This document shows, piece after piece, positions 15,187 through 38,083 of a stretch of DNA of 64,000 nt. The stretch covers positions 33,143 to 97,142 of the forward strand of contig CAZMBE010000001.1 in NCBI GenBank assembly GCA_964564625.1, in the 5' to 3' direction. The notes beneath the pieces were generated by a model, which saw only the letters and a list, made by a program, of their open reading frames with translations, was not told the DNA's origin and searched no databases. The stretch is from an uncultured Syntrophaceae bacterium (GTDB lineage Bacteria > Desulfobacterota > Syntrophia > Syntrophales > UBA2185). How positions within the stretch are numbered: position 1 is the stretch's first letter; each line of letters opens with the position of its first letter. Both the position numbers and the translations under genes were made by a program.

Positions 15187-15214
15187 AATCAGTCAACTTT
15201 CTTTTTTCAAAAGT

Positions 15215-16114: not shown

Positions 16115-16142
16115 ATAGCAGTCATCCTGAAAAAAACGTCCG

Positions 16143-17129
16143 TCAAATTTCCTTTTTCGTGACTTCAGATGCAGCCCACGCCATGTATTCCTGTAAGCCT
16201 TCCTCCATCAATATGGAAGGTTTAAAACCAAAGGAATGACGTGCCTCAGATATATCCGCCAAGCTGTGCCGCACATCTCCGGACCGCGGTGGTCCGTACA
16301 CCACTTGCGGTTCAATTCCCGAAACCACCCACAACAGTTGCACAAGCTTGTTAATCGTAATCCTGCCACCACTGCCGATATTGAATGCGCCAGACAAACC
16401 ATTCGCCATTGCAGCCTTAATATTGGCCTGAACCACATCTTTAACATTGATGAAATCACGGGTTTGCTCGCCGTCGCCGAAAATGGTCAGTTTTTCGCCA
16501 CGAAGCATCTGGAAGGCGAAAATCGGTATTACATTGCCGTAAGCATCGAACCGTTGATTAGGGCCGTAGACATTGAAATAACGTAGGCAGACTGCTTCTA
16601 AATCATAGAGTTTTGAATACGTTAGGCATTCCTTTTCCATACAAAGCTTCGAGCTACCATAAGGTGTATCTGGATCAACTGGATGATCTTCTTTAATGGG
16701 AATTGTTTTCAGTTCACCAAAAATCCCCGCTGATGAGGACGCTACAATCTTTCTGACACCTGCATGGCGCGCAGCTTCTAAAACTTTTAGCGTGCCCATG
16801 ACATTGATGTCGGCGTCAATAATAGGGTGATCTATAGAACGCTTGTTGCCCACAGAAGCCGCCAGATGAAACACCACTTCAACGCCCTTGATCGATTCAG
16901 CAACAATGACTTCATCGCGGATGTCTCCTTCAATAAAACGAATTTGCGGGAACGGATTAAGGTTTGAACGATAACCGGACAGGAGGTTATCGAGCACTGT
17001 TACCTCATGGCCGTCATCAACAAGTTGCCGAACTAAATTTGAGCCAATAAAACCAGCGCCGCCGGTTACGAGAAACTTCAATGGGAAGCCTTTCTTAGAG
17101 AAGTTTATTCTGGTGTCATTATTGCGCAA
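16143..17129 (-). CDS. NAD-dependent sugar-nucleotide epimerase/dehydratase (extended SDR)
   Basis: Rossmann motif VTGGAGFIGSNL and YxxxK motif (YGSSK). The tracked start at 17129 is a TTG. The alternative TTG at 17091 (LKFLVTGG) is equally plausible. Confidence 0.75.
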   Translation of the reverse strand: MRNNDTRINFSKKGFPLKFLVTGGAGFIGSNLVRQLVDDGHEVTVLDNLLSGYRSNLNPFPQIRFIEGDIRDEVIVAESIKGVEVVFHLAASVGNKRSIDHPIIDADINVMGTLKVLEAARHAGVRKIVASSSAGIFGELKTIPIKEDHPVDPDTPYGSSKLCMEKECLTYSKLYDLEAVCLRYFNVYGPNQRFDAYGNVIPIFAFQMLRGEKLTIFGDGEQTRDFINVKDVVQANIKAAMANGLSGAFNIGSGGRITINKLVQLLWVVSGIEPQVVYGPPRSGDVRHSLADISEARHSFGFKPSILMEEGLQEYMAWAASEVTKKEI

Positions 17130-17173
17130 ACGGGAGTCGGGAATTTTAAACTACTTATAGAATTCCACTTTCA

Positions 17174-18199
17174 CTATAAAACAATACTGCCCATTTCCAA
17201 AGATTCCTTTACCAAGTCGAGTTTCAACAGCAAATCAATCAGGCCATTCTCATCCAATTGCTGTGCATTGTGAGAATGGTAATCCTCATGGTCTGAAACT
17301 CCCGTTTCACCCTCAGTAAAATAGCAAGCGTAGTTGAGATCGCGGATGTCTGCAGGTATCCGGTAATAATCGCCCATATCTTCCGCACGGGACATTTCTT
17401 CCCGTGTCAGCAGCGTTTCATAAAGTTTTTCGCCATGACGTGTGCCAATGATGCGGATATCGTTGTCAGCGTTGAACAGTTTCTTCAACGTGCGGGCCAG
17501 TGTTTCAATGGTCGCTGCAGGCGCCTTCTGAACAAAAACATCACCCGGATGTCCGTTCTCAAATGCATACACAACAAGATTTACCGCGTCATTAATGGAC
17601 ATCATGAACCGGGTCATGTTCGGATCTGTAATTGTCAGTGGCTTCCCCGTCATAATCTGGCTGATAAAAAGAGGAATAACGGATCCCCTGGAGCCCATGA
17701 CGTTGCCATAGCGGGTGCCGCAAAAGATGGTCCCTGAATCACCGTGGGTCCGCGCTTTGGCGATCATCAGCTTCTCCATTAGCGCCTTAGACATCCCCAT
17801 GGCATTGATGGGATATACAGCCTTATCAGTGCTGAGCGTGATCATGTTCTTGATGTTGCAAGCTAATGCCGCTTTCATTGCGTTATCCGCGCCGATGGCG
17901 TTCGTCCGGATGGCCTCCAGGGGGAAGAATTCGCAGGACGGCACCTGCTTGAGTGCTGCTGCATGAAATACCATGTCCGCGCCCTGCATGGCAGGAAGAA
18001 GACTATCATAATCCCGGACATTCCCCAAATAAAACTTCACTTTCGGATTCCTCAGGGCATTGCGCATATCGTCCTGTTTTTTCTCGTCGCGCGAAAAAAT
18101 ACGGATTTCTTTGATATCAGTATCCAGAAAGCGGTTCAATACAGCATTTCCAAAGGTGCCCGTACCGCCAGTGATTAGCAGGACTCTGTCTTTAAACAT
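17174..18199 (-). CDS. UDP-GlcNAc 4,6-dehydratase/5-(3-)epimerase, FnlA/CapE/WbvB type
   Basis: The N-terminus is MFKDRVLLITGGTGTFGNAV...IRIFSRDEKKQ. The atypical MxxxK (MGMSK) replaces YxxxK, as in the CapE/FnlA subgroup. Confidence 0.85.
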   Translation of the reverse strand: MFKDRVLLITGGTGTFGNAVLNRFLDTDIKEIRIFSRDEKKQDDMRNALRNPKVKFYLGNVRDYDSLLPAMQGADMVFHAAALKQVPSCEFFPLEAIRTNAIGADNAMKAALACNIKNMITLSTDKAVYPINAMGMSKALMEKLMIAKARTHGDSGTIFCGTRYGNVMGSRGSVIPLFISQIMTGKPLTITDPNMTRFMMSINDAVNLVVYAFENGHPGDVFVQKAPAATIETLARTLKKLFNADNDIRIIGTRHGEKLYETLLTREEMSRAEDMGDYYRIPADIRDLNYACYFTEGETGVSDHEDYHSHNAQQLDENGLIDLLLKLDLVKESLEMGSIVL

Positions 18200-18564
18200 G
18201 ATTAAACCTCACTATTATAAAATCTTCATCTTTTTAATGTTCGATTCGCTGATGTTTGTGTGATGACGGTTAAAACAACTACAAGTTATGGATTACTATC
18301 GAAAGTAAACATCGTAACATATGTTATGTCGGACCCTGAATCGCGTTCAAGGCAGGCGCTGATAATCCTGCTTCGCATCCTTCCTCCGTGAGGACAGGCT
18401 TGATAAGGGTCACTGAGTCTTCTCAATAGAACCCGGCCCCTGCCCCGGACACCGATCTCGGATTTGCCAGGGTAATAATTCATATGTTCGTAGCGGCTTC
18501 TTGTTGCATTTGGTTAAAATGTACCAGCAAATTTAATATCAGCGGCGATACATAGATAAATTAG

Positions 18565-19347
18565 TTAAGATGTGCGGTAATTCTCATCAATGAGTGCGTC
18601 TTTTTCTCTTCTGTTTGGATAATTTATAAGTACGGCCCTGTAAATGCCTTTGAATACAAATAAGCTACCGGCGGCAGCACCAATAATCCCATACTGACTA
18701 ATTAATTGTCCAATATCCTTAAGCGACCCAGCGCCACCAAGTACAGTCATCGGAATGGTTATCTTTTTTCGGATTTTCTCAACTATCGAAAGATCATAAC
18801 CTTCCATAATACCGTCATTATCTATGGAATTAACTATTACCTCACCAACACCGAACTTTTCCAGTTGTATCGCAAACTTTATTGGACATTTTCCTGTTTT
18901 CTTTTTCCCATTATGTGTCCAGACCTCATAATTTCCATCTATTATTTTTTTCTTAATATCAATAACCACACATACACTCTGACTGCCAATTTGTTCTGCT
19001 ATTTCTGAAACCAGATTAGGGCTTTCTACCGCAGCAGAACTTATTGCCACTTTCTCAACGCCCAACCCAATTATTCTTTGTGCCTGTCTAACAGTCTTTA
19101 CACCACCACCGTAGCAGAGGGGCATTCGACATTCAGCAGCTAAATTTTCAATCATTCTAAAGTCCGGTTCTACGTTATGAGAAGTAGCATCAATGTCAAG
19201 GACCATCAATTCGTCAACTTCCTTTTCATTAAAGATCCGCACTGCATTAATAGGATCACCAATATATTTTGGTGCTCTAAAATTGACAGTCTTTATTAGT
19301 CCCTTGTTATGAACTAACAAACAAGGTATTATCCGTGGACGTAGCAT
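18565..19347 (-). CDS. HisF-like imidazole-glycerol-phosphate-synthase cyclase subunit paralog (WbuZ type)
   Basis: TIM-barrel HisF signature (RIIPCLLV..., DELMVLDI, GGG). It sits in a polysaccharide cluster beside HisH-like and WbuX-like genes, not in a his operon. Confidence 0.85.
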   Translation of the reverse strand: MLRPRIIPCLLVHNKGLIKTVNFRAPKYIGDPINAVRIFNEKEVDELMVLDIDATSHNVEPDFRMIENLAAECRMPLCYGGGVKTVRQAQRIIGLGVEKVAISSAAVESPNLVSEIAEQIGSQSVCVVIDIKKKIIDGNYEVWTHNGKKKTGKCPIKFAIQLEKFGVGEVIVNSIDNDGIMEGYDLSIVEKIRKKITIPMTVLGGAGSLKDIGQLISQYGIIGAAAGSLFVFKGIYRAVLINYPNRREKDALIDENYRTS

Positions 19348-19350
19348 TGA

Positions 19351-19965
19351 TTAAAGGTCGGCAAAGTTTTTAAGAAGTTGAACGCCACATTGATGACTTT
19401 TCTCTGGGTGAAACTGGACGCCAAAAATATTTCCTGAGCACACAGCGGATGCGAAATGACTGCCATAATGCGTTATTGCGAGCACATCTTCTTTTTTATT
19501 GCAGTGAAAATAATATGAGTGCAAAAAATAAAAGCGGGAGTCAAGATTAAATCCTCGGAATAAACTAGTTTTTGTAACAGGTTGCACATCGTTCCAACCC
19601 ATGTGAGGAAGATGTGTGCTGTGAGTCAATCTTGAATGGTCAATTTTTTTAACTACCCCGTCAATCCACCCAAGACCTGGTAAAGCTCCTTCTTCACTGG
19701 AACGGGCAAGTATTTGCATACCTACACATATACCAATTACTGGCACATTATCCTTTAATACAAGCTCGTCAAGTGTCTGCCGCATACCAGATTTCTCAAG
19801 TTGCTCCATTGCATTGTCAAAAGCCCCGACCCCAGGCAGAATGACTTTTGTGGCTGTTTTCAAATCATCGCTTTGTGTAGCAATATTGATGGGGATATTT
19901 AATTGATTATAGACATTTACAAATGCCCTAATATTTCCTAACCCGTAATTAACTATTGTTATCAT
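19351..19965 (-). CDS. HisH-like glutamine amidotransferase subunit paralog (WbuY type)
   Basis: Class-I GATase with the nucleophile elbow GICVGMQ and the C-terminal motif FHPEKS. It overlaps the upstream gene (ATGA at 19962). Confidence 0.85.
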   Translation of the reverse strand: MITIVNYGLGNIRAFVNVYNQLNIPINIATQSDDLKTATKVILPGVGAFDNAMEQLEKSGMRQTLDELVLKDNVPVIGICVGMQILARSSEEGALPGLGWIDGVVKKIDHSRLTHSTHLPHMGWNDVQPVTKTSLFRGFNLDSRFYFLHSYYFHCNKKEDVLAITHYGSHFASAVCSGNIFGVQFHPEKSHQCGVQLLKNFADL

Positions 19966-21104
19966 CTGATAACTCTTTTTTCTATTCCTAATAATTGCAT
20001 TACTTTTGTTCCCAAGGTTATTAAAGCCATGTTGTTTTTGTAATCACGGTAAGTCTTGTTCTCTCCTTCAAATAGTTCCTGAAACTCAGATACAGTTAAA
20101 TCTAATTTTTTTGCAACATACTCGAAGTCTTGCAACATTGTTTGCTCGTCTATTTCTGGTTTTGCTATTCGCTCAAGAGCCTCTTGACGGGTCATCTGGT
20201 TGGTTAAAATTAAACTTGAGAGGTGAGCTTTTCGCCTTTCATAGCCGAATTTTTTGGGAAGCCAAAAACACTCGACAAATCTTGTAAACCGAGATTCATG
20301 ATGCTTTTGGGCATAGCTCTGCCAACCAAAGCGATCAGTCAATTCCTGTATAGCAATTTTTTTTATATAAGGTACATAATTTAATGGTCTTACAACCCGA
20401 ATACCTTTTATGTAACCATAATATAACTTATATTTGAAAATATCCGCAGTTGGAAATGTTTTCAAAGGACGCTTTCCAAAGCGACGATGAATATCTCTCA
20501 CAAAACGCATGTCTGTTGGATAATAAGCCCCCCACTCATTTGGCTCACGAACACATTCCGTTGAATAGTTTGCCCCTGTTAAAATATATTTGAAGTTATT
20601 TTTTACGGCGAAGTTATAAAGAGATGAAAAAAAAGATAAATCCTGGGGAATATCAATATTAGCTAGTTGTGCTTTAAAGAATGCTAATTGCAAATCCTTC
20701 ATCTCTGACCAATCTATAACATCCGTATAAAGATCAAGCCCGAGTCCATCTACCAACCTTTGAATATTATTTGCAGATACCTGTGAATTCCAACCAGCAT
20801 CGACATGGAACAGAAGGGGCTTCAATCCTAATTTTTCCTTTGCTATATAAGCAACGTACGAACTATCGACGCCACCGCTAATGCCAATCAAACAATCGTG
20901 ATCGCGTCCTTGCCCATCTTTCTTAATCTTTTCAGTTACTTTTGCTAATTCCTTCTCTCCCTGATCATTTGGATGCCAGTTTGGCTTGATATTTTCATAG
21001 AAATTGCGGCAATAATCGCACCAACCTCTCTGATCAAAAGTGATATCGGGATCAGTGGTGTCCATTATACAGTTAGAACATATTTGAAATTTTTCAGTAC
21101 TCAT
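19962..21104 (-). CDS. N-acetyl-sugar amidotransferase (PP-loop ATPase; WbuX/LfnA/PseA family)
   Basis: An N-terminal Cys-rich zinc ribbon (CSNC...CDYC) is followed by the PP-loop GISGGVDSSY. The triad with HisH and HisF paralogs is the known acetamidino-sugar module. Confidence 0.8.
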   Translation of the reverse strand: MSTEKFQICSNCIMDTTDPDITFDQRGWCDYCRNFYENIKPNWHPNDQGEKELAKVTEKIKKDGQGRDHDCLIGISGGVDSSYVAYIAKEKLGLKPLLFHVDAGWNSQVSANNIQRLVDGLGLDLYTDVIDWSEMKDLQLAFFKAQLANIDIPQDLSFFSSLYNFAVKNNFKYILTGANYSTECVREPNEWGAYYPTDMRFVRDIHRRFGKRPLKTFPTADIFKYKLYYGYIKGIRVVRPLNYVPYIKKIAIQELTDRFGWQSYAQKHHESRFTRFVECFWLPKKFGYERRKAHLSSLILTNQMTRQEALERIAKPEIDEQTMLQDFEYVAKKLDLTVSEFQELFEGENKTYRDYKNNMALITLGTKVMQLLGIEKRVIR

Positions 21105-26082: not shown

Positions 26083-27501
26083 TTATGTATTTGCCGAGAT
26101 GGCCTTTATGATATAATTTGTATATGCATCAACATTTTCTTTGTCTTGCGGGGTGCAAAGAACTCCTTCAGAGTTGAAAACAGGCACAATATGCCCAGGA
26201 AAGCTCCCTGAAAGCCAGGTGCGCCAATAATTCAAATCCAACGTGTATTCTTTCTGCTGAAGTTTTTCAAAAAGATCCACTAATGAAAGCTGCGAGCTGA
26301 TGTCGCCTGCAAAAAGCATCTTCAAGCCCGGTGGGCGGCCCAACGCAATCGAAGGTTTTCCCAACACGGCGGCTTCATTAGAGGCTGTTCCGGCAAGCGT
26401 TACGGTAACCCTGGCGGCCAAGACAAGATTTGTAGAATCAACATCTGGTGATACAAGAACAATGTTTGGAATAGCCTTGAGCCTCCGGTAATAGTCAATG
26501 GGCCGCATGCCCTTCATTTTGGGGTTTTCCTTTACCAGAAGTTGCCATCCTGCCGGTAATGCCTGACTGACTATCCGACACATTTCAATTTGATCACGCA
26601 ACCAAGGGCTATACATCAAGATAGTAGCTTCCGGCTCCATATGCAAAGGTATGTAACATGAAGATGCTTTCAACGTTTTTAATGCATCGGTTGTTAGAAT
26701 ATCATATTTCGGTTCTGGATGTTTAAACCACCTTTGTGGCAACCTGTTTTTAATTGTTTGCAATGAAATGATTTTTGAAACTGGAAAATAACTGCCTGCC
26801 TTACGGTCCTGCTTATCACACGATAGTTCGTGATAGCGGCTACCCAGCCGCGTCCACAAAGGAGGAATGGCTTGTGGTTTCATGTATTCAATGCGTTTTT
26901 CAGCAGGAGTGTGAAGAAGCCGCCGGCATTCTTCAAGAAGCGCTTCCGCATTTCCTTCAAGGGGTACACTCCATGTTTCCCACGGTGTTTTGAGCGCAAT
27001 CACCCTGCCGGGTGGTAAACCGCAACCTACAAAAGAAAAATGAGCGCCGCCTCGGCTGTTTGCGAGCGCCCCAGCAAGCCAGTAAAAGAAATGATCATAC
27101 ATGGAACTGATAGACAACGTTCCTTCAGAAACGAGATGGTCAAGAACGACAAGATGTTTTCGTCCAAAAAGAACCGCATCCAAGCCATCTTCCGGCAAGA
27201 ATCTTTCGCTTTGAAGCATTAAATTAAAATTTGCACCTTGTTTCTCATATAGGAGGCGATCTATTTCAGAAAATCTTTCACCAGTAATTTCATACCCGCT
27301 AACTTTACCCAACTCTTCCGGCATGTAAATACATTCATAACCAGCCTGTTCGGCCCTCTCTATTGCCCACGAGAAAAACGTTACAAATCTAACGGGAATG
27401 TCACCAAGTTTTTCCTTAAGACTTTTTGCCAATTCAACATGAAAAAGGACTTGCCAGGGGCGGGTAAGGAACAAAATTTGCCTTACGGATTGGCTAGTCA
27501 C
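26083..27501 (-). CDS. Uncharacterised soluble transferase-like protein (possible GT-B / capsule-biosynthesis-like fold); NulO-transferase candidate
   Basis: The GTG at 27501 overlaps the stop of the wzx 3' fragment (GTGA), giving about 472 aa. The tracked start at 27555 lies inside wzx. The C-terminal half (YIPLHMEPE...VKENPKM...TLAGTASNEAAVLGKP) resembles nucleotide-sugar-binding halves of GT-B or capsule-synthesis enzymes. I cannot place it in a named family. Confidence 0.4.
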   Translation of the reverse strand: MTSQSVRQILFLTRPWQVLFHVELAKSLKEKLGDIPVRFVTFFSWAIERAEQAGYECIYMPEELGKVSGYEITGERFSEIDRLLYEKQGANFNLMLQSERFLPEDGLDAVLFGRKHLVVLDHLVSEGTLSISSMYDHFFYWLAGALANSRGGAHFSFVGCGLPPGRVIALKTPWETWSVPLEGNAEALLEECRRLLHTPAEKRIEYMKPQAIPPLWTRLGSRYHELSCDKQDRKAGSYFPVSKIISLQTIKNRLPQRWFKHPEPKYDILTTDALKTLKASSCYIPLHMEPEATILMYSPWLRDQIEMCRIVSQALPAGWQLLVKENPKMKGMRPIDYYRRLKAIPNIVLVSPDVDSTNLVLAARVTVTLAGTASNEAAVLGKPSIALGRPPGLKMLFAGDISSQLSLVDLFEKLQQKEYTLDLNYWRTWLSGSFPGHIVPVFNSEGVLCTPQDKENVDAYTNYIIKAISANT

Positions 27502-28783
27502 GTTTTTATATCCAGTGTTGTCAAATAATAAGAATAGGCCAAGGCAAATACACACAGAAATGCGCTCGCAATAAATCTAGCCCATGCAACTCCTTCAATT
27601 CCGAAACCTTTTTGAACAAGAATCAAACCTAATATCCATAACACAAGAATCGCAACAGCATATCCGATCATGAGCGGAATATTTCTTCTTACAACTGGGA
27701 TGATTACGCTGACACCAAAATAGACCAGGAATATACTGCCCAATGAGTAAATTTTTGCTGCCTCAATTCCATCTCTATAGTTGGGTAAAAAATTTTCAGT
27801 CATTGGGCCAATCAGAAAATAGCTTATGAGACATAATGGGACTACGGTAAGTATGTTAATAATTAAGCTGAAAAAAAAAACCCTTTTAAACCTAACGATG
27901 TCTTCGATGAACCGTAAATATATGATGCCCTCGGATAGAGCAGCGCTCCCATACTCACAGGCAGGATCTGAATGGCTGTAACAATCAGACCTGATAATGC
28001 CAATTGCCCAACAGCCTCCGGCCCCAACATAAAGGCTACAATGGTCCTGTCTGCTGCTGTAAAAAAAATATACAACACACCCGTTGCAAGCATGGGAAAA
28101 CCAACACGAGTTAAATCTGATATCTCGTCAATCCTTCCCATTGATCTATGCTTAACGGGGCTTTTGCGATACAACAAAAGAAAGTTAACCATAGGAAGCA
28201 CTGCGCTTCGAAAGATCAAACCGAAAGCGCCGAATACGATGGGAAGAAAACCAAGAACAAAATTTACTCCGTTAGCGATGTTAAGAAAGATCCCCAGAGA
28301 CATAAAGGCGCGGCAACCTCGGTATATTGTTTCGTAATGAGTACATATTGGTGAGAATATTAAAATTCCAAAAAGGATAGCAACAGAATATAAATATAAA
28401 TTTGCATAGCCATACATAAAGAAATAGATTAACGCGATGGAGGATATCACTATCCCAATAAGTGAGTTAATAATGGCGGTTAACCAACTCGCATCAACCA
28501 TGTCCTGTATCTTGACCTTGTTTTGTTGAGCATCATAAAAAGCTATATTTCGATTCAGACCATTAAACACGCCAAAATGAAAGAATGAGCAATAGACAGA
28601 TATAAGCATCACAGTTTGAATGACTCCCAATTCATAAGGGAGAAGGTATTTGGCTGCGATGATGCTTGTCAGAAAGCCGACCAGTGGTGTGCTGATCTGC
28701 GAAGCCAGGTAAACCAGATCGCCGTATCTCTGCCGGTTTAAAACATATAGATAGAAATATTTTTTTGCCGTACTAATACACAA
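27498..28783 (-). pseudogene. wzx: O-unit flippase Wzx (MOP superfamily), interrupted by a frameshift in a homopolymer
   Basis: Two consecutive polytopic ORFs (306 aa and 101 aa) lie in different frames. Adding one T to the T10 run (coding strand) gives the continuous hydrophobic read-through ...GFFFFSLIINILTVVPLCLISYFLIGPMTENF... The total is about 430 aa, the usual Wzx size. Confidence 0.7.
27871..27880. repeat. A10:T10 homopolymeric tract at the wzx frameshift site
   Basis: Read directly: ...aagctg aaaaaaaaaa cccttt... Confidence 0.95.
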
Positions 28784-28951: not shown

Positions 28952-30040
28952 TCATGACTTCAGATTCTCTCTCTGATTTATATCATTTTGAGCCTTTTCA
29001 TAGTCTACATGTTGGCCAATATCCACCCAGTATTCAATAATAGGGAAACTTATCACATTACGCCCCGCATCTAAAAGGCACTGGATTAAATCTGTCATGT
29101 TGAAATGCTCACCGTTAGGAATAAACTTGTAAACTGCTGGCTCTAATAGATAGATTCCTGCGTTGACAAGAAAACTTTTTTGCGGTTTTTCATTTAAAGC
29201 ACATACACGCGGCCCATCGCATTCTACCACGCCATAGGGTACTTGCATACTATATTGTCTGACTGCTACAGTCATGTCTGCAAGATGGTCCTGGTGGTAG
29301 GACAGCATGCCTCTGAAATCAACCTGCGTTATAATATCGCCATTGATCACCAATACGGGTTCGGTAGGCTTGGACATAAGCCCCAGTGCGCCGGCCGTGC
29401 CGAGCGGCCGATCTTCGTTGACATAACACAACTCAACCCCAAAATCTTTCCCGTCTCCAAAATGCTCGGTTATCTTTTCAGATTTATAGAGCGTGGTTAC
29501 ATGAACGCGTGTAATTCCGGCTTGCCGCAATTGCTCAATCGTCCTTTCCATCAGCGGTTTACCGCCTACCGGAAGCATCGGTTTCGGCAGATCATCAGTA
29601 AGAGGGCGCAGGCGATTACCGAGACCGCCTGCCATAATAACCGCCGACATTGAAGCAGGCTCTTCAGATATGAGGTCTCCTCGAAGCAATAGTGCGACAA
29701 CTTTTTTTTCATCATCCACAAGCGGGAGATGGTTGATCTTGAAAGGACGAGTTTGATTCATGATATGCAAAGCTTCTTCACGCGAAATATTGTGACCTGC
29801 AATGACTGGATTCATGTTTGCTATGGTAATGCATGGATCTGTGAAGGGAATATTGCGGATTATCGCACGGCGGATATCACCATCTGTGATAATTCCAACT
29901 ACTTTTCTATCCTTCTTGCATAAAATTAACGCACCAACACCAGAACGGTCAAGTATGGGAATGACGTTGGATATGGATAAAGTTGACGATATGATTGCTT
30001 TTTCTAATCGATTCCTCGCCGCTTCTATTGATATTGCCAT
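28952..30040 (-). CDS. CBS-pair + sugar-phosphate nucleotidyltransferase (PtmE-like)
   Basis: N-terminal CBS motifs (VVGIITDGDIRR; HLPLVDD) are followed by the NTP-transferase motif VIMAGGLGNRLRPLT. It sits in a NulO module. Confidence 0.75.
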   Translation of the reverse strand: MAISIEAARNRLEKAIISSTLSISNVIPILDRSGVGALILCKKDRKVVGIITDGDIRRAIIRNIPFTDPCITIANMNPVIAGHNISREEALHIMNQTRPFKINHLPLVDDEKKVVALLLRGDLISEEPASMSAVIMAGGLGNRLRPLTDDLPKPMLPVGGKPLMERTIEQLRQAGITRVHVTTLYKSEKITEHFGDGKDFGVELCYVNEDRPLGTAGALGLMSKPTEPVLVINGDIITQVDFRGMLSYHQDHLADMTVAVRQYSMQVPYGVVECDGPRVCALNEKPQKSFLVNAGIYLLEPAVYKFIPNGEHFNMTDLIQCLLDAGRNVISFPIIEYWVDIGQHVDYEKAQNDINQRENLKS

Positions 30041-30093: not shown

Positions 30094-30741
30094 TCACTTC
30101 ATTTGCTTTGCGGGAACGCCCACAACCGTTACACCCGGTGGCACATTTTTTGTGACAACCGCACCTGCACCGACAGTGGCGCCATGGCCTATTGTTACAT
30201 ACTGCAATATTGTGGCGCCAGTACCAATTAAACATTGATCGCCAATCCGGACACCCCCGGATATATTTAACCCCGGATTAAAAACGCAGAAGTCACCAAT
30301 AACTATATCGTGGCTGTACGTTGAGTTACGATTGAATTGATTAAAAGAGCCGATTTGTATGTCCGTCGTAAAAATGTTACCCGCACAGACAATATTCCCT
30401 TTCCCAAATAAAACACGCTCTTCATCCATGATGGTCTTAGGATGAAAGAGGTTTGGAAACACGACATTATTATTAAAACAGAACCTGCTGCAGATGTTAA
30501 CCATCGTTTTAGGATTTCCTATGCCTAATGCCAAGGCTATTGTGTCAGCAAATGATAATATGTAATGCTCAGAGCCAACGATTTTGTACTTTCCATTAAA
30601 GGCCCCCTCATGATCTTCACTTCGATCAATATATCCCAATATGTTCCATTGCGGTGAGATAGAAGCTCTGTTTATCTCTTCGATTAAAAAAGCCACTTCC
30701 TTGGCATGCCCACCCGCACCAATGATAAAAATATCATTCAT
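30094..30741 (-). CDS. Left-handed beta-helix N-acetyltransferase, NeuD/PglD/LegH family
   Basis: The N-terminal motif is [12 protein letters not shown]-terminal hexapeptide repeats are present ([31 protein letters not shown]). Confidence 0.8.
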
Positions 30742-30744
30742 CTT

Positions 30745-31797
30745 TTAAACCAAATCATCCCATTCTATTTCTTCATCTGCCTGAACCTCGCGGTTTAGGG
30801 CTCGACCTATCACATAAAAATATTCATCCGGATGGATGCCCATTCCCGGCCTTTTAAAATCAATATCTTCTAATTTTAATTTGTGCCCTTTTGGAAAAGC
30901 CTTTGTTGTAACTAAACGTCGTCTGAATTTCCCCCTTTTTTCTATTTCAGCTGCATATAAATTACGAACAAAACCGCCTAAAGACAAAAATACCCTGCGA
31001 CCCTCTGTGGCAATAATGCTTAGTTCAGTAGGATCCGCTGAAATGGCATGATCCCAACCTTCCATATTTTTATCAAGAGTGAAATGTTTCTCAATTATGC
31101 AAGCACCTAAAGCAATAGCTGCTAATGGAATAGAAGTGCCAAGAGAATGATCGCTGAAGCCGACAGGCACATTAAAAATCTTTTGTAGTGAAATTATGTT
31201 GCGTAAATTGATTTCTTCATACGAAGGAGGATAAACGGCAATGCAATGTAGAAGTACAATATTTTGTGTTCCATTCTTTTTCAATATATCAGTAGCTTTT
31301 TCAATTTCTCCTAATGTGGCCATGCCTGTTGAAAGGATAACAGGTCTTTTTTTCTTGGCAACATATTCAAGAAGTAATAAATGGTTAATATCCATAGATG
31401 CAATTTTATACGCGGCCACCTTCAATTCATCCAACAAATCAACTTCTTGTCGAGTGAAGCAGCTTGAAAGAAATGTGATACCTCGCTTCCTACAATAATC
31501 TGCTACCTCGAAATGCTGTTCCCGTGTTAACTGATATTTTTCCACCATTTCTTCAAGAGAGCCGAAATGCTTCTTCTTATCGTCATAAGATGTGTTACGT
31601 TTATACTCAGCGGCTGATATAATGGATGTTTTTGACCATGACTGAAATTTCACCGCATCGGCTCCGGAGATTAATGCAGCATCTATTAAACGTTTGCATA
31701 AATCCATATCACCATTGTGGTTGGATCCAATTTCTGCGATAATGTATGGTGGTTCACCTGCACCGATTCTTCGTCCGGCAAGATTCAGCGTCTCCAT
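30745..31797 (-). CDS. Nonulosonic acid synthase, NeuB family (LegI/NeuB/PseI type) with a C-terminal SAF domain
   Basis: The ATG at 31797 is preceded by the SD ggagg. The motif PYIIAEIGSNHNGD is present. The C-terminus has a SAF-like domain. The tracked GTG at 31833 is less likely. Confidence 0.85.
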   Translation of the reverse strand: METLNLAGRRIGAGEPPYIIAEIGSNHNGDMDLCKRLIDAALISGADAVKFQSWSKTSIISAAEYKRNTSYDDKKKHFGSLEEMVEKYQLTREQHFEVADYCRKRGITFLSSCFTRQEVDLLDELKVAAYKIASMDINHLLLLEYVAKKKRPVILSTGMATLGEIEKATDILKKNGTQNIVLLHCIAVYPPSYEEINLRNIISLQKIFNVPVGFSDHSLGTSIPLAAIALGACIIEKHFTLDKNMEGWDHAISADPTELSIIATEGRRVFLSLGGFVRNLYAAEIEKRGKFRRRLVTTKAFPKGHKLKLEDIDFKRPGMGIHPDEYFYVIGRALNREVQADEEIEWDDLV

Positions 31798-32693
31798 AAT
31801 GCCTCCAGTTTGGGATGGGCAACGATATCCCACCAGATATGTGGTTCCATTATTTCATTTAAAGCCTGTAAATACTTACATAAAGTTTCTTTCGAGTTTT
31901 TGATGGAATAAAAAAATTCACTAACAATCATTCTGTTTTCATCAACCTTTAATAAATGTTGTGACTTGAGATCGTTAATATATGGTAGCAGTAAATTAAA
32001 ATGTTGGAAAACCATCTTTGTTGCATTTAATATATACTCTTCGGTGAATGGAGGTAGAATACGGGCTACATTAGCGGTATACTGGCGATAGTGCATTCGA
32101 CATTCAGGATCAAAATACATTTTGGCATCTTTTGACCACGCATTTATAGCTAAAAACCAATCAACAATCACGCACTGATCTGGTATTGGTAAACAGCGCT
32201 TCAGTATTTCTGATCGATAGGCTGTATTGGATAAACCAAAAACATTATGTTTCGGTAATATATCACATGTCTTCATATTAGCGGGTATCCCAAATAAACT
32301 GTCTAAATTGTTTCCATACTCATCAACAAGATTCATGGCACACCCGTAGACGTCATACGCTACCAAAGCATCCCTCGCGGCCTCCACCCTCGAAGGATAT
32401 AGAATATCATCGCTATCAACAAAAATAATACCGTCATAATTATTAATCATTTCCAAAATAATACGTTGGCGAATTTGTGCAGGCGTTTCTCTCCGTTTAG
32501 AAAATCTCATCGTAGCATATGGTGTGGCACCAATAGCATCGATAATGTGTTCAATATCCAGGCTATCGATACCTATCCAAAGATCAAAATTCCGATCTTT
32601 TTGTTTTAATACTGAGTCATACCAAGATGTAAGAAATTTTTCTACACCAGGATAAATAGTTGTATACAAAGCTAATCGTGCAGTTGATCTCAT
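31785..32693 (-). CDS. Uncharacterised GT-A-like (GT2-like) protein with a DSDD motif
   Basis: The N-terminus LALYTTIYPGVEKFL...DLWIGIDSLD and the segment IIFVDSDDILYP resemble the nucleotide-binding and DxD region of GT-A enzymes. The C-terminal ~130 aa is unassigned. It sits between the CMP-synthetase and NulO-synthase genes. Confidence 0.4.
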   Translation of the reverse strand: MRSTARLALYTTIYPGVEKFLTSWYDSVLKQKDRNFDLWIGIDSLDIEHIIDAIGATPYATMRFSKRRETPAQIRQRIILEMINNYDGIIFVDSDDILYPSRVEAARDALVAYDVYGCAMNLVDEYGNNLDSLFGIPANMKTCDILPKHNVFGLSNTAYRSEILKRCLPIPDQCVIVDWFLAINAWSKDAKMYFDPECRMHYRQYTANVARILPPFTEEYILNATKMVFQHFNLLLPYINDLKSQHLLKVDENRMIVSEFFYSIKNSKETLCKYLQALNEIMEPHIWWDIVAHPKLEALWRR

Positions 32694-33403
32694 ATCAAAT
32701 GCATACCCTTTAGCATAAGAATTTCAGCCAGTTTCCAATCATCCTCTGTATCAATATCAATAGCCCGATACCAAGGCATTTCCCACCCTGTATGATTAGT
32801 CGTGTAAAACGTCTTTTCCTGTCTTAGCACGTCTGCTTTGACCCACCAGATAGCACCAGTGGGGCAAAAAATCTCCGGCAAATCCTGGCTGCGCTTGGTC
32901 GTCTGCTCTTGGAAAATAGGGGTAAGCTTGTTATGATTATCCATTGCCATAGCCCACCATGGATTTTGCCATCCATATCTGGCAATGGAAATTTGTGACT
33001 CAGTATCTGTCTCAAGGAACTTACAGTAACTGTTTAATATGTCCTTTACAGATCTCAAAGGACAGTTTGCCATAAACTGCGCTATATATTCATATTGACC
33101 TCCATCGGGATCAACCCGTTCCAAGGCATCCAGTGTCACTAAGGAAACCGGTGTGTAATCGTCAGCAATCGATTCCAAGCGTATGAATGGCACCTGGGCT
33201 CCATATCTGCAAGCTATTTTCGCTATCGCCTGATCATCCGTTGAAACTAATACACTTTCAAAAACACCGCTTTCAATAGCTGCCTCTATGGTATATGCAA
33301 TGATCGGTTTTCCCAAAAAGTCACGAATATTTTTGTATGGAATCCTCTTAGATCTACCACGTGCAGGTATGACAGCCAAATTTTTATGCTTTTTAAGATT
33401 CAT
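32690..33403 (-). CDS. Acylneuraminate-type cytidylyltransferase (CMP-NulO synthetase, NeuA/LegF family)
   Basis: The N-terminus is AVIPARGRSKRIPYKNI. The protein is 237 aa. Confidence 0.8.
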   Translation of the reverse strand: MNLKKHKNLAVIPARGRSKRIPYKNIRDFLGKPIIAYTIEAAIESGVFESVLVSTDDQAIAKIACRYGAQVPFIRLESIADDYTPVSLVTLDALERVDPDGGQYEYIAQFMANCPLRSVKDILNSYCKFLETDTESQISIARYGWQNPWWAMAMDNHNKLTPIFQEQTTKRSQDLPEIFCPTGAIWWVKADVLRQEKTFYTTNHTGWEMPWYRAIDIDTEDDWKLAEILMLKGMHLI

Positions 33404-33486
33404 GTATCTTATTTTTCGGTCTTTCAGCTGCGCTAAAAGACCTTGTAAAACCTTTGCATAATGTTGGTTTAAATTTTCCCCTTATT

Positions 33487-34780
33487 GTCGGGGCCATTTT
33501 CCCGCGTCGTTGTTATTTTTTAGGTTTTATTGCTCTTTGACAACCTTGATTTCTCCCCGGATACCCCCGGAAAGGGGGCTCAGGGGATGCTCCCCCTATG
33601 TTGCAGCAATCATCTCCCGTTTTCTGAGATTCAGGACAACACGTTTAATGTTGAAGGCCATGGCTCCACAGAGATGATCCCAGTTCTCCTTGACGATGGT
33701 TGTGAACCGCGCCTTCCCGGCTCCATGATATGTATGCGTGATCCCAAAGTACTGCTCAATCTTATACCTGATCTTTGAGATTCTCTTGTTCCTCTGGATT
33801 TCAGCCTCCGTCAGAGAGGCATTGATCTGATTCTTCCTCATGATGCCGTCACGTATCCCGTTCATGTGTAAAAAGTCCCGGTTCGGTTCACCACAGTATC
33901 CCTTGTCGGCATACACCACAGGCGGCAGCGCTTTCCCGTGAATGCCTTTCGTTACGGTATAAGAAAAATACTTTGTATCATGCTCCGATGCCCTCGACAT
34001 ACAGGTGGACAATACAAGGCCACTCCCCACATCGATGGACACATGCTCCTTCATCCCGAAGACGGGTTTGTTGTGTTTCACCGTCCAGTCCGAATCAATG
34101 TCCCGCTGGAACCGCATGGCCTTCTGAGTCTTCTTTCTCATCTGCGCCCTGATCTTCCGCTTCTCTCGGAGTTCTCTGAGCTTCCTGTCACTGATGGGGC
34201 GGCTGGCCGATCTCACGACACGGGCATCCGCGGCCATGCCGGATTCAATGGAAAACCCCAGAGCATCACACTGATTCAGGAGCTCGTGATGAACCTTCTC
34301 CAGGGTCTCTTTCCTCGTGCGCTCACGAAAACGGCAGATGATTGAATGGTCCGGGGATGGCTCGCTGAAGGGTAATCCGATGAAGGCCTTGAAGGAGAAA
34401 CGATCATTGATCTGCCTCTCCAGATCAGGATCAGACTTTATCCCAAACCATTTCTGCATGAGGATCGCTTTCAGCAACATCAAGGGAGGATATGCCTTAT
34501 TCCCAAAGTCAGACTGCCCCACAGGATAGTTTTCCTGGACAATCTTCTCGATGGGATCCCAGTTAATGATGGCATCGATTTCTGAGAGGACTTGCCGGTT
34601 GCTGGAGTGGGTGACGGCTCGTTGTATTTCCATATCCAGGAATGTCGGTTTTGTATCGTATTCCTTGAATGCCATGGCGGTCTCCTTCAGCAAGAATGTT
34701 ACCGGAAGGCTACCATAAAATAATGTTATTGTCAAGTAATATCAATATGTTAAATGAATTTTAATCTAAATTCCCCCGAC
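33487..34780 (-). mobile_element. IS5-family insertion sequence (boundaries approximate)
   Basis: It contains the transposase gene. Its base composition differs from the flanks. The right limit is constrained by the end of the NeuC/LegG-like stub homology (about 34781). The only candidate terminal inverted repeat is gtcggggNNattt at 33487 and 34780, which is too short to be statistically convincing. No target-site duplication was seen. Confidence 0.6.
33596..34675 (-). CDS. IS5-family DDE transposase (InsH-like N-terminal domain + DDE_Tnp_1)
   Basis: The ATG at 34675 is preceded by the SD gaaggag. The translation reads MAFKEYDTKPTFLDM...PPLMLLKAILMQKWFGIKSDPDLERQINDRFSFKAFIG...ADKGY... with a ...YHGAGKARF... 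C-terminus typical of the IS5 group. Confidence 0.85.
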   Translation of the reverse strand: MAFKEYDTKPTFLDMEIQRAVTHSSNRQVLSEIDAIINWDPIEKIVQENYPVGQSDFGNKAYPPLMLLKAILMQKWFGIKSDPDLERQINDRFSFKAFIGLPFSEPSPDHSIICRFRERTRKETLEKVHHELLNQCDALGFSIESGMAADARVVRSASRPISDRKLRELREKRKIRAQMRKKTQKAMRFQRDIDSDWTVKHNKPVFGMKEHVSIDVGSGLVLSTCMSRASEHDTKYFSYTVTKGIHGKALPPVVYADKGYCGEPNRDFLHMNGIRDGIMRKNQINASLTEAEIQRNKRISKIRYKIEQYFGITHTYHGAGKARFTTIVKENWDHLCGAMAFNIKRVVLNLRKREMIAAT

Positions 34781-34914
34781 TCTGCCAGCGGGACTTGTGC
34801 AAAGATTTCAATCTGGCCCTTCAGATCGGAATTATTCAGAATATCCTTTATAACCCACTAGAGGCGGCCGTATTCGGCGCGTGTTCCTGGAACAAAACAG
34901 ATTTTTTCAGACAT
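34781..34914 (-). pseudogene. 5' stub of a NeuC/LegG-type hydrolysing UDP/GDP-HexNAc 2-epimerase gene, with an in-frame TAG, truncated at the IS
   Basis: Hand translation gives MSEKICFVPGTRAEYGRL*WVIKDILNNSDLKGQIEIFAQVPLAE. The KIxFVxGTRAEYG opening is the hallmark N-terminus of NeuC/LegG enzymes. The start overlaps the legC stop (ATGTCTGA). The TAG is at 34860-34858. The remaining ~330 codons are absent. Confidence 0.7.
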
Positions 34915-36088
34915 TCTCGTCTACCAGAAACGAGCTACTGGGTATATTTATGAGTCGTTTTGCTAGGTTTTCAGCACAGCCAAGCTCCATTGCCGGGCAT
35001 TTTTTGAACATGGATAATGTATGCATCAGCGTCCAGGCAGGGCGCACCATGATCCCGCTGTCGTTAGTTTTTTCAAGAATTAAGTCGCGCTTATCGCAAA
35101 GGTTCGTGTCCAGAAGAATCGTATTGAGCCAGTAATTACTCTTGGCAAAGGGGGGCTCTTTAAAGAATGTAATGCCTTTTATCTTCTGAAAAGCATTTTG
35201 ATAGCATTCTGCAAGACGCCTTTTTTGTTCCAGAAATTTTGGGAGCTGCTCCATCTGGGCGCACCCCAAGGCGGCATTGATGTTGGGAAGTCGATAGTTA
35301 TATCCGACATGATCGTGTCTATATTCCCACCGGTGGGGAATTTTTGCAGTTGATGTCAAATGCTTGGCCAGTTTGCCCAGTGCCTCATCATTGGTGATTA
35401 TCGCCCCCCCCCCTCCCGTCGTGATCGTTTTGTTTCCGTTAAAACTCAGACTGGACAATTTTCCCTGGTTTCCCGTGTGTCTTCCCTTATAGTATGAACC
35501 AAGGGATTCCGCGGCGTCTTCAATCACTTCGATTTTATATATCTTGCAGGTCTCAATGAGGGGATCGAGATCGACGGGATGCCCGAAGGTGTGCACCGGG
35601 ATGACTGCTTTGATCCTCCTTCCGGTAAATATGTTGGTGCAGCCGTTCGAATTTATCCGGGCGATGTTTTTGAGATGATCCTGAAGTTTAATAGGGTCGA
35701 GTCCCAGGGTTCTTTCTTCACTGTCCACAAAATGAGGAACGGCACCGCAATAGGTGACGGCGTTGGTAGTCGCTACAAAAGTTAACGCCGGAACCAGAAC
35801 CTCATCCCCGGTTTTAACCCCGGACAATATCAGGGCGATATGGAGGGCTGCAGTACCGTTAACCATGGCCACCGCTTTTTTAGAGCCCGTGAAGTCCGCA
35901 AGCATAGCCTCGAATTTATCCACATATTGCCCGATGTAGGAAACATAGGTAGAATCAAGACAATCCTTGAGATAAATCCATTCATTCCCGCACAAACACG
36001 GCTCATGCAGAGCGACGTGGCCTTTTTTGTCAGAAATGGCGCTTTTAATGGCGGTTATGATGGCGTTGATATCCAGTTGTGCTGTCAT
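34907..36088 (-). CDS. legC: PLP-dependent sugar aminotransferase, DegT/DnrJ/EryC1 family (LegC type)
   Basis: The PLP-lysine context is SFNGNKTITTGGGGAI. The protein is 393 aa and overlaps the upstream dehydratase gene (ATGA at 36085). Confidence 0.8.
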   Translation of the reverse strand: MTAQLDINAIITAIKSAISDKKGHVALHEPCLCGNEWIYLKDCLDSTYVSYIGQYVDKFEAMLADFTGSKKAVAMVNGTAALHIALILSGVKTGDEVLVPALTFVATTNAVTYCGAVPHFVDSEERTLGLDPIKLQDHLKNIARINSNGCTNIFTGRRIKAVIPVHTFGHPVDLDPLIETCKIYKIEVIEDAAESLGSYYKGRHTGNQGKLSSLSFNGNKTITTGGGGAIITNDEALGKLAKHLTSTAKIPHRWEYRHDHVGYNYRLPNINAALGCAQMEQLPKFLEQKRRLAECYQNAFQKIKGITFFKEPPFAKSNYWLNTILLDTNLCDKRDLILEKTNDSGIMVRPAWTLMHTLSMFKKCPAMELGCAENLAKRLINIPSSSFLVDENV

Positions 36089-37095
36089 ATATTATATTCA
36101 CCCCACTTGTATTGCCGTAAGCAATCGGGATTTGTAAACCATGTTACGGTTTCCTGCAACCCTCTTTTTAATCCTTCGACGCCGTCGTAGGCAGGTGACC
36201 ATCCCGTCAATTCTTTTACTTTCCTGTTGTCTGCCCAGAGTCGTTCCACTTCGCTATTCTCGGGTCTGACTCTTTGTAAATCACTTTCAATTGCTATATT
36301 TTCCTTCATGATCTCGGCAATGATTCTTACTGTTTCTCCGATTGATATTTCAAAATTGCTTCCGATATTTATTACTTCCCCTATGACCTGATCTGATGCT
36401 GCAACGGCAAGGAAACCATTCACCGTATCTTTCACAAAATTAAAATCCCTTGTCGGATGCAATGAGCCTAATTTTATTTTTCTGACACTGTTGGCAATCT
36501 GTATAATGACACTGGGGATAACCGCTCGAGCCGATTGTCTAGGCCCGTAGGTATTAAAAGGACGAACAATACTTACTGGCATATTGAAAGCATGGTAAAA
36601 AGACATTGCAATCTGATCCGCCCCAATTTTGCTCGCAGAATAGGGAGATTGTCCCTTTAATGGATGCTCTTCTGTAATTGGCACAAATCTGGCCGTCCCA
36701 TATACTTCACTTGTGGATGTGTGAATGACCTTGGATATTCCGAGTTCTCGTGCAGCCTGTACAATATTAAGAGTTCCTTTTACATTTGTATCGATGTAGG
36801 TATCCGGCGAATGATATGAGTAAGGGATAGAAATCAAAGCAGCAAGGTGGAAAACTACATCACACCCTTTCATGGCATGCCTGACACCATGGGGATCACG
36901 CACATCCCCTGCAATAATTTCAATACTCTTTTTAATATCCGGATCCGAATGATCAAGCCATCCCCAGGAATTAAATGAATTATACATAACAAACGCACGA
37001 ACATTGTACCCGCGTTTGACCGATTCCTCCGTCAAATGAGATCCTATAAATCCATCGGCACCAGTGATAAAAATCTTTTTATTTTTCAGGTTCAT
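36085..37095 (-). CDS. legB: NAD-dependent HexNAc 4,6-dehydratase (LegB type)
   Basis: Rossmann motif IFITGADGFIGSHL, the segment ...MYNSFNSWGWLD, and YxxxK motif (YSASK). It is the first biosynthetic gene after wzz. Confidence 0.75.
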   Translation of the reverse strand: MNLKNKKIFITGADGFIGSHLTEESVKRGYNVRAFVMYNSFNSWGWLDHSDPDIKKSIEIIAGDVRDPHGVRHAMKGCDVVFHLAALISIPYSYHSPDTYIDTNVKGTLNIVQAARELGISKVIHTSTSEVYGTARFVPITEEHPLKGQSPYSASKIGADQIAMSFYHAFNMPVSIVRPFNTYGPRQSARAVIPSVIIQIANSVRKIKLGSLHPTRDFNFVKDTVNGFLAVAASDQVIGEVINIGSNFEISIGETVRIIAEIMKENIAIESDLQRVRPENSEVERLWADNRKVKELTGWSPAYDGVEGLKRGLQETVTWFTNPDCLRQYKWGEYNI

Positions 37096-37231: not shown

Positions 37232-38083
37232 CTAATACTTTATTTTCACTCTCTTTCTTTCAAATTTTTCCATGATAAAAACTATAAATATTCCAAATAT
37301 GAAACCACAAAGACCTGCAATTGTAATAATAAAAGCCTTTTTAGGTTTTATAGGGTATTGTGAAATAAAGGGATCTTCCAAAGGTCGAACCATCTTATAA
37401 TTTTGACGCTCTTGTTTAAGGAGAAATTTTTCCATTTTCAAATCTATTGATTTAATATTAATTTCTATTGGATTGAATCCCACCGGAAGTAATTTGGCAT
37501 TACTAAGTCTCTTTTCAATTTCTCTGATTTGAAAATCATTTTTCTTAACTGCTTCTTTTACATTTTTTATTCTTTCATCAAATTCTAATATGATTTTCTC
37601 ATAATTACTTTTCATCTCCCGTATGTTTTCAATATACCTTATCATTTCCTGCATAGCTACTGGTAAAATCTCACGATTACTCGATTCGATTGTTATTTTT
37701 AATTTATCGGTTGCTCCTCTTATATCATTGATTTTTACATTCGTTATCACATCAGCATATTTTGTAAATATAATTGCCTTTTTTTCAGGATCAATCTTTC
37801 CGATTATTAATGATATATCTTTCGCTGTGAGCGGATCTTTTCCTTTATGCATAAGTTCTTTAGGCATAAACAATTTCGCAAGTGTTTCTATTTGATAAAT
37901 TTCAGGAGCAGTAAAACAATAAATTGTAGCGACAAGAAGAGATATCAGGAAAATTCCAATGATGATTATTTTTCTCTTTATTATAACCTTCCATAAATCA
38001 TACAGATTTATTTTATCATATTCGTTTGTTTCGAAATTACCAGACTGAGAATCAACCATGGTTTTTTCTTCTTTATTAGTCAT
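37232..38083 (-). CDS. wzz: O-antigen chain-length determinant (Wzz, PCP-1 type)
   Basis: The N-terminal Wzz-domain context is INLYDLWKVIIKRKIIIIGIFLISLL...APEIYQ. A long coiled-coil periplasmic region follows. The second TM helix is preceded by PIKPKK. Confidence 0.75.
   Translation of the reverse strand: MTNKEEKTMVDSQSGNFETNEYDKINLYDLWKVIIKRKIIIIGIFLISLLVATIYCFTAPEIYQIETLAKLFMPKELMHKGKDPLTAKDISLIIGKIDPEKKAIIFTKYADVITNVKINDIRGATDKLKITIESSNREILPVAMQEMIRYIENIREMKSNYEKIILEFDERIKNVKEAVKKNDFQIREIEKRLSNAKLLPVGFNPIEINIKSIDLKMEKFLLKQERQNYKMVRPLEDPFISQYPIKPKKAFIITIAGLCGFIFGIFIVFIMEKFERKRVKIKY

Follow-up and report, generated by a model that had tools for sequence, protein, structure and literature searches.

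An IS5-family element separates a legG remnant from a second type of nonulosonic acid gene cluster in an uncultured Syntrophaceae bacterium

We analyzed a 64-kb window (64,000 nucleotides of contig CAZMBE010000001.1, positions 33,143 to 97,142) from an uncultured Syntrophaceae bacterium, whose minus strand carries a cluster for nonulosonic acid (NulO) biosynthesis interrupted by an IS5-family insertion sequence (IS). The IS lies at a junction between cluster types and not at a simple insertion site. It is preceded by legB, legC, and a decayed 5' remnant of legG, the gene of the NeuC-type hydrolysing 2-epimerase, and followed by neuA, the gene of a conserved uncharacterized protein (X302), and neuB. 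We interpret the locus as a mosaic, probably still functional NulO cluster in which nucleotide-sugar hydrolysis is most plausibly performed by X302, a reading to which we assign a probability of about 0.6. The best matches of the DNA relate the organism to Syntrophaceae or Smithellaceae. Canonical CMP-legionaminic acid clusters from Campylobacter jejuni, Halorubrum sp. PV6, and Leptospira encode LegB, LegC, LegH, LegG, LegI, LegF, and PtmE, and the canonical pathways require LegG (PMC6137143, PMC3438082). The features of the window cluster are, in operon order:

36085 to 37095, minus strand: legB, NAD-dependent 4,6-dehydratase (TIGR04180 LegB, 535 bits; cut-off, 475).
34907 to 36088, minus strand: legC, aminotransferase (TIGR04181 LegC family, 535 bits; cut-off, 420).
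34809 to 34914, minus strand: decayed 5' remnant of a NeuC-type legG, 35 codons plus 1 nucleotide, with an in-frame TAG at 34860-34858.
33447 to 34808, minus strand: IS5-family insertion sequence, ~1,362 bp (each end ± ~3 bp).
33596 to 34675, minus strand: transposase open reading frame within the IS, 359 amino acids, apparently intact (DUF772 and DDE_Tnp_1 domains; NF033581).
33404 to 33446, minus strand: non-IS spacer of 43 nucleotides between the IS, its end placed from related copies, and the neuA ATG, with a hairpin inside.
32690 to 33403, minus strand: CMP-nonulosonate synthetase of the neuA/pseF type (Pfam CTP_transf_3; TIGR03584 PseF, 216.5 bits; cut-off, 205.7).
31785 to 32693, minus strand: X302, conserved uncharacterized protein of 302 amino acids with a predicted GT-A (GT2-like) fold (AlphaFold2 model and Foldseek; DSDD motif).
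30745 to 31797, minus strand: neuB-type nonulosonate synthase, 350 amino acids (Pfam NeuB and SAF).
30094 to 30741, minus strand: NeuD/PglD-type N-acetyltransferase in the legH role (Pfam PglD_N and Hexapep; TIGR03570, 175.9 bits; cut-off, 160.8).
28952 to 30040, minus strand: ptmE-like nucleotidyltransferase (CBS and NTP_transferase domains).

The legG remnant starts with an ATG at 34914 that overlaps the legC stop codon as ATGTCTGA (minus strand) and encodes MSEKICFVPGTRAEYGRL*WVIKDILNNSDLKGQI..., the asterisk marking the TAG at 34860-34858 (codon 19). Start, peptide, and stop agree with a preliminary description of this DNA made from its letters alone, and the NeuC/LegG likeness proposed there is borne out by profile and similarity searches. 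The stub contains the N-terminal KIxxVTGTRAEYG nucleotide-binding motif and matches the NCBIfam family TIGR03568 NeuC_NnaA (E = 1.8e-6), its residues 4-35 aligning with profile positions 2-33. It is 59% identical over 32 amino acids to LegG residues 5-36 of syntenic relatives (tblastn), and its DNA is 71-78% identical to the legG 5' ends of these relatives, with the homology to locus L008 reaching 34809, the last base before the IS. Five relatives retrieved through LegC (L006, L007, L008, L010, and L018) have a NeuC/LegG gene of ~390 amino acids directly after legC, and the stub shares this position and the start/stop overlap with legC seen in L007 and L008.

Comparison with 30 LegG sequences revealed that 19 of 32 stub positions agree with the consensus, and that T9P, L17R, Y19stop, D28N, and L33G all fall at near-invariant positions; the TAG replaces a tyrosine that is conserved in homologues. 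Of the full-length, uninterrupted LegG frame (~390 amino acids) 35 codons are left. The four closest LegG N termini are 81-91% identical to each other, and the stub is 53-59% identical to them, whereas LegC has no matching excess divergence in the same comparisons (72-78% versus 71-76%). The greater divergence of the stub, together with the changes at invariant sites, indicates a remnant that has long been without constraint. Judged by its sequence, the stub is a pseudogene remnant of a NeuC-type legG. A chance resemblance of an intergenic region to the NeuC N terminus might be entertained, given that only 35 codons remain and no Pfam family matches. This alternative is effectively refuted by the TIGR03568 match, the tblastn identity, and the DNA alignment, to which the shared position and overlap with legC may be added, and we give it a negligible probability.

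We found no other NeuC-type sequence in the 64-kb window. An intact legG paralogue, which the preliminary description wished to see sought in the genome along with further IS copies, is absent from the window, where the only other Epimerase_2 gene (14059-15186) is of the wecB type. We rejected this gene as a LegG substitute: it is of the non-hydrolysing WecB/FnlC type (wecB equivalog, 231 bits versus 210) and belongs to an FnlA/B/C-like set.

The transposase contains PF05598 (DUF772; E = 1.3e-21) and PF01609 (DDE_Tnp_1; E = 4.6e-15), the domains of an IS5-type enzyme, and matches NF033581 transpos_IS5_4 with 169.6 bits (cut-off, 140), in line with the IS5-type transposase unit that had been described after the stub. 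Most of its close homologues are likewise 359 amino acids long. With a single DDE transposase of this domain composition, a length of ~1.36 kb, and short imperfect inverted repeats, the element resembles the IS5 group of the IS5 family; it is identical to none of the copies we retrieved, the best transposase being 89% identical. It is a single element in the orientation of the operon. A second copy was not found in the 64-kb window (blastn, tblastn), and the IS had no match in a plasmid collection.

We placed the ends of the IS by comparison with related copies fetched via transposase homologues, which come from three independent contexts (L002, L003, and L004/L005). Similarity of the window to these copies is confined to ~34808 to ~33447, and these limits coincide with imperfect terminal inverted repeats (34795-34808 versus 33448-33461, arms 86% complementary). 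The refined ends change several features of the preliminary description, in which they had been misplaced. The stub comprises 35 codons (34914-34809) instead of 45; its supposed tail, IEIFAQVPLAE, is not a degenerate TGMHL region, as the last 10 residues (EIFAQVPLAE) represent the terminal repeat of the IS and align with IS copies in unrelated contexts; and the non-IS sequence before the cytidylyltransferase ATG is 43 nucleotides (33404-33446), not ~85. The related IS copies (79-85% nucleotide identity; L002 1-1313, L004/L005 30-1181) adjoin DegT aminotransferase or sugar epimerase genes, which suggests a recurrent association of this IS lineage with polysaccharide loci.

At the refined ends, there is again no target-site duplication: the flanks are ...CCAGATTG and ACAAGGTC..., with no direct repeat under either end model. 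Among the few related copies, L004/L005 are flanked by AATA/AATATA, and L002 has no flanking repeat. If the two flanks of the window copy derive from different sites, a missing duplication is expected, and it is no argument against the identity of the IS. When an IS has unrelated flanks and no duplication at the point where a gene is truncated, the textbook explanation is an adjacent deletion or recombination of two IS copies with each other. Either process accounts for the single IS seen here, and the data neither distinguish the two processes nor give the size of the loss.

To define what lies on either side of the IS, we compared the window with 53 loci found through LegC (type A, canonical) and with 80 metagenome loci found through the window's NeuA (type B). 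Type A loci typically run LegB-LegC-LegG-NeuB-LegH-PtmE-NeuA, with LegG present in 30 of the 53. Nearly all type B loci have NeuA-X302-NeuB in this order where the contig reaches that far, and NeuB is usually followed by an acetyl- or formyl-transferase and then by PtmE. The window's LegB is 80-84% identical to LegB of the type A loci L008 and L010, and its LegC is 72-79% identical to LegC of L006, L007, L008, and L010, where legG follows directly 3'. Both proteins score above their NCBIfam equivalog cut-offs, as in a canonical legionaminic acid cluster. Beyond the IS, identities to type B proteins are 54-67% for NeuA, 38-53% for X302, 57-62% for NeuB, and 50-62% for PtmE over full-length matches (37-62% over all matched segments). 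The corresponding identities to type A proteins are 25-39% for NeuA, 26-55% for NeuB (mostly 33-45%), and 28-54% for PtmE (mostly 28-42%). A NeuC-type match is missing from 79 of the 80 type B loci, the exception being L113. On these sequence affinities, the window is a mosaic, with LegB, LegC, and the legG remnant of type A, NeuA, X302, NeuB, and PtmE of type B, and the IS exactly at the seam. G+C content drops modestly across the junction, but G+C content and its value at third codon positions are heterogeneous and not decisive.

The 43-nucleotide spacer has no legG 3' similarity in any frame and no similarity to any other fetched locus. We thus rejected it both as a legG tail, since no frame resembles a LegG C terminus, and as a conserved neuA leader. 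Most of the spacer is occupied by a hairpin (33418-33442) with an 11-bp stem and a 3-nucleotide loop (GGTCTTTTAGC GCA GCTGAAAGACC, minus strand). A promoter and terminator scan of 33300-35000 gave counts not above those in shuffled sequence, and an Rfam scan of the window returned no matches. In many type B clusters, the gene of a conserved protein of ~480 amino acids without a Pfam family (N terminus ...VYIVHCIDTEGP...) separates the CBS/PtmE genes from the acetyltransferase (or NeuB) gene. It occurs in 43 of the 80 NeuA-derived loci (for example L063 8392-9828 and L104 7703-9157), whereas neither the window nor any type A locus has it.

In the exceptional type B locus L113 (contig Ga0114129_10302910, 2,129 bp), a LegG 3' end is followed by a second cytidylyltransferase, with 31% identity to NeuA of the window, and then by type B NeuA-X302. 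No other locus that we found combines a NeuC-type LegG 3' end with type B NeuA-X302. L113 may represent two abutting NulO clusters and a possible ancestral state for the junction in the window.

The stub, the IS, and the missing duplication would all fit another history, in which legC, legG, and neuA were contiguous in the ancestor and an IS5 insertion with an adjacent deletion removed ~1 kb of legG, so that the hydrolysing 2-epimerase step was lost and the pathway is now dead or dependent on a paralogue. A LegG gene can occur in one locus with type B NeuA-X302, as L113 shows, a frameshifted flippase gene downstream (described below) hints at decay of the locus, and a hydrolysing Epimerase_2 gene is not found elsewhere in the 64-kb window. 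We nevertheless regard this history as unlikely. Among the 133 loci fetched via LegC or NeuA, there is none where legG immediately precedes a type B neuA, and even L113 has another cytidylyltransferase in between. The 43-nucleotide flank shows no trace of a legG 3' end, the seven neighboring genes are intact despite the heavy decay of the stub, and the same gene set is found naturally without legG. The preliminary description was correct in that legG is truncated at the IS, but the ~1 kb that it took to be deleted is unsupported, as the right flank holds no legG tail but the start of a different NulO module.

In the mosaic reading that we prefer, the rest of legG and an unspecified amount of further DNA would have been lost by an IS-associated event. 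Candidates for this event are an adjacent deletion and a recombination, either of two IS copies, which might have resided in separate NulO clusters or on incoming DNA, or of two cluster types. The remnant would then have decayed, acquiring a single stop codon and several substitutions at invariant sites, and the seven flanking biosynthetic genes would have stayed intact.

IS copies are frequent sites of breaks and mis-joins in metagenome contigs, and the left flank of one IS copy, within legG, could have been joined in the assembly to the right flank of another, upstream of neuA. Several Logan contigs from this population terminate within the IS, and L141 and L143 both start at 33985, which suggests that related IS sequences are present in the samples; the modest G+C step across the junction would also be compatible with a mis-join. 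Logan contigs from eight runs (SRR15734598-605) are, however, 100% identical to the window wherever they overlap, and one of them, L001 (SRR15734605), crosses legC, the stub, the whole IS, and neuA without a difference. Logan contigs are built on a short-k de Bruijn graph in which repeats are not resolved, so that an identical IS present in several copies should break the contig. Reproduction of the junction by these contigs argues against an assembly chimera; the reads behind them are probably the same as those used for the metagenome-assembled genome. Given also that the 64-kb window holds no second IS copy and that operon strand and gene order are coherent across the junction, we consider an artefact very improbable.

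We find that clusters without legG occur naturally. L104 encodes LegB, LegC, LegH, NeuA, X, and NeuB, and L149 encodes NeuA, X, NeuB, a PglD-type acetyltransferase, PtmE, LegB, and LegC, where X denotes an X302 homologue; neither locus contains a NeuC- or PseG-type gene. Both LegB and LegC of L104 score above their equivalog cut-offs; of the L149 proteins, LegC does so (468 versus 420 bits) and LegB falls below (430 versus 475). Methanospirillum lacunae (L146) has a compact six-gene cluster of NeuA, X, NeuB, acetyltransferase, aminotransferase, and dehydratase. In four neighborhoods of X302 homologues with Pfam annotation, which are NulO clusters of 6-7 genes, neither an Epimerase_2 nor a PseG-type gene lies within 10 kb. 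The X302 homologue of L038 and L040 is located between the acetyltransferase and NeuB, in the slot expected for LegG.

The gene set that remains in the window, in which a NeuC-type LegG is represented by the remnant only, equals that of such natural legG-less clusters, and all seven remaining biosynthetic genes around the IS and the stub are intact. The claim that the hydrolysing 2-epimerase step has been deleted is accordingly not established and probably wrong, as L104 and L149 have the same gene set without NeuC or PseG. Intact neighbors despite a decayed stub, the natural legG-less clusters, and the features of X302 lead us to conclude that the locus is probably functional without legG. 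The product may be legionaminic acid; the cytidylyltransferase scores as a PseF equivalog, and the score of the synthase is below both the NeuB and the PseI equivalog cut-offs of NCBIfam.

X302 has no Pfam or NCBIfam family above threshold. Its match to Pfam Glycos_transf_2 (PF00535) is below membership (E = 0.18, 12.2 bits versus a cut-off of 23.3), and a PF00535 match is precomputed for only part of its homologues, of which we found 624 in bacteria and Methanospirillum. An AlphaFold2 model of X302 (pLDDT, the predicted local distance difference test score, is 93.4) was compared with the PDB using Foldseek and returned GT-A glycosyltransferases (6p61, 5hea, TarS, TarP, and SpsA) with E values of 1e-13 to 1e-10. 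A profile search against PDB sequences identified the GT2 protein 5hea (E = 1.5e-5). The model predicts a Rossmann-like GT-A fold with a DXD motif, and the sequence DSDD at residues 93-96 is invariant in 32 homologues. The X302-type gene lies almost always between neuA and neuB in the legG-less module (L062-L138, L146-L149), and X302 and NeuC-type genes are near-exclusive in their occurrence across loci. In six-gene clusters such as L146, X302 is the sole unassigned gene. Gene context makes release of a free hexose from a nucleotide sugar the most plausible activity of X302.

A glycosyltransferase-fold protein in the hydrolysis step has precedents outside the NeuC family, namely PseG, a UDP-sugar hydrolase of GT-B fold in pseudaminic acid synthesis, and SpsG in the "original" legionaminic acid pathway of B. 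subtilis (PMC7439481). X302 resembles these enzymes in having such a fold and in occupying the corresponding slot in L038 and L040. It differs from them in that its predicted fold is GT-A (GT2-like) with a DXD motif and not GT-B, and we have seen no sequence relation to PseG or SpsG, though no comparison was aimed at one. The literature we searched describes the canonical pathway, which depends on LegG, and the SpsG variant of B. subtilis, and it yielded no GT-A-type replacement, an absence that does not prove novelty. We tentatively raise a broader possibility, in which X302 defines a widespread NulO cluster type without NeuC and PseG in Bacteria and Methanospirillum and is its missing nucleotide-sugar hydrolase, with or without 2-epimerisation, as a non-orthologous replacement of LegG/PseG. 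The legG stub could then be the record of a displacement, legG having become dispensable once the X302 module joined legB and legC.

Several points weigh against the mosaic reading or against the role we assign to X302. Related IS copies differ in their flanking repeats (AATA/AATATA or none) and so set no usual length for the target-site duplication of this subgroup. We found no relative with an empty site or an intermediate arrangement, the nearest LegC being 80% and the nearest NeuA 67% identical; exact-protein look-ups of the transposase and of X302 returned only Logan contigs of the same population, 100% identical and without an empty site, and the exact LegC protein is not on record in the contig index. 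With no closer relative, the order of events and the amount of DNA lost are reconstructed, and the ancestral state is not recoverable. L113 makes an ancestor with both legG and X302 possible. The GT-A fold and DXD motif of X302 are equally compatible with an ordinary glycosyltransferase, and its activity is predicted. Finally, the flippase frameshift may mean that the whole locus is decaying.

This flippase gene, of the Wzx type (27498-28783, minus strand), lies just downstream of ptmE and is frameshifted within a T10 run (27871-27880), past which ~135 further codons continue in another frame. The independent Logan contig L139 has the same T10 sequence. Possible readings of the frameshift are phase variation, a second pseudogene, and a sequencing error in the homopolymer. 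Just upstream of legB, a Wzz/GNVR chain-length-determinant gene (37232-38083, minus strand) has a G+C content of 28% compared with 44% for the window, which suggests that part of the locus is of foreign origin. The region 14059-21104 (minus strand) contains an FnlA/FnlB/FnlC-like set (Polysacc_synt_2, 17174-18199; RmlD_sub_bind, 15215-16114; and the wecB-type epimerase, 14059-15186) beside HisF-like (18565-19347), HisH-like (19351-19965), and NAD-synthase-like (19962-21104) genes. FnlA/B/C with HisF/HisH/NAD-synthase-like genes is the pattern of L-FucNAc and acetamidino-sugar synthesis. The whole window is one large surface-polysaccharide locus.

Compared with the canonical legionaminic acid cluster, the window has LegB, LegC, a NeuD-type acetyltransferase, a NeuB-type synthase, a cytidylyltransferase, and a PtmE-like enzyme, and its legG remnant is in the canonical position. 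It differs in that LegG is reduced to 35 decayed codons, that the synthase and the cytidylyltransferase are of another lineage, and that an extra GT-A-like gene lies between them. In itself, the feature is a routine pseudogene next to an IS, within a mosaic surface-polysaccharide locus of an uncultured anaerobe. Of greater interest is a by-product of the analysis, the conserved GT-A-like family found with NulO clusters that lack NeuC. A NulO pathway without NeuC/LegG can be wrongly scored as "broken", as a large cluster class never has legG. Should X302 prove to be the hydrolase, an unassigned step of many nonulosonic acid pathways, environmental and archaeal, would be filled, and the annotation of these clusters would change.

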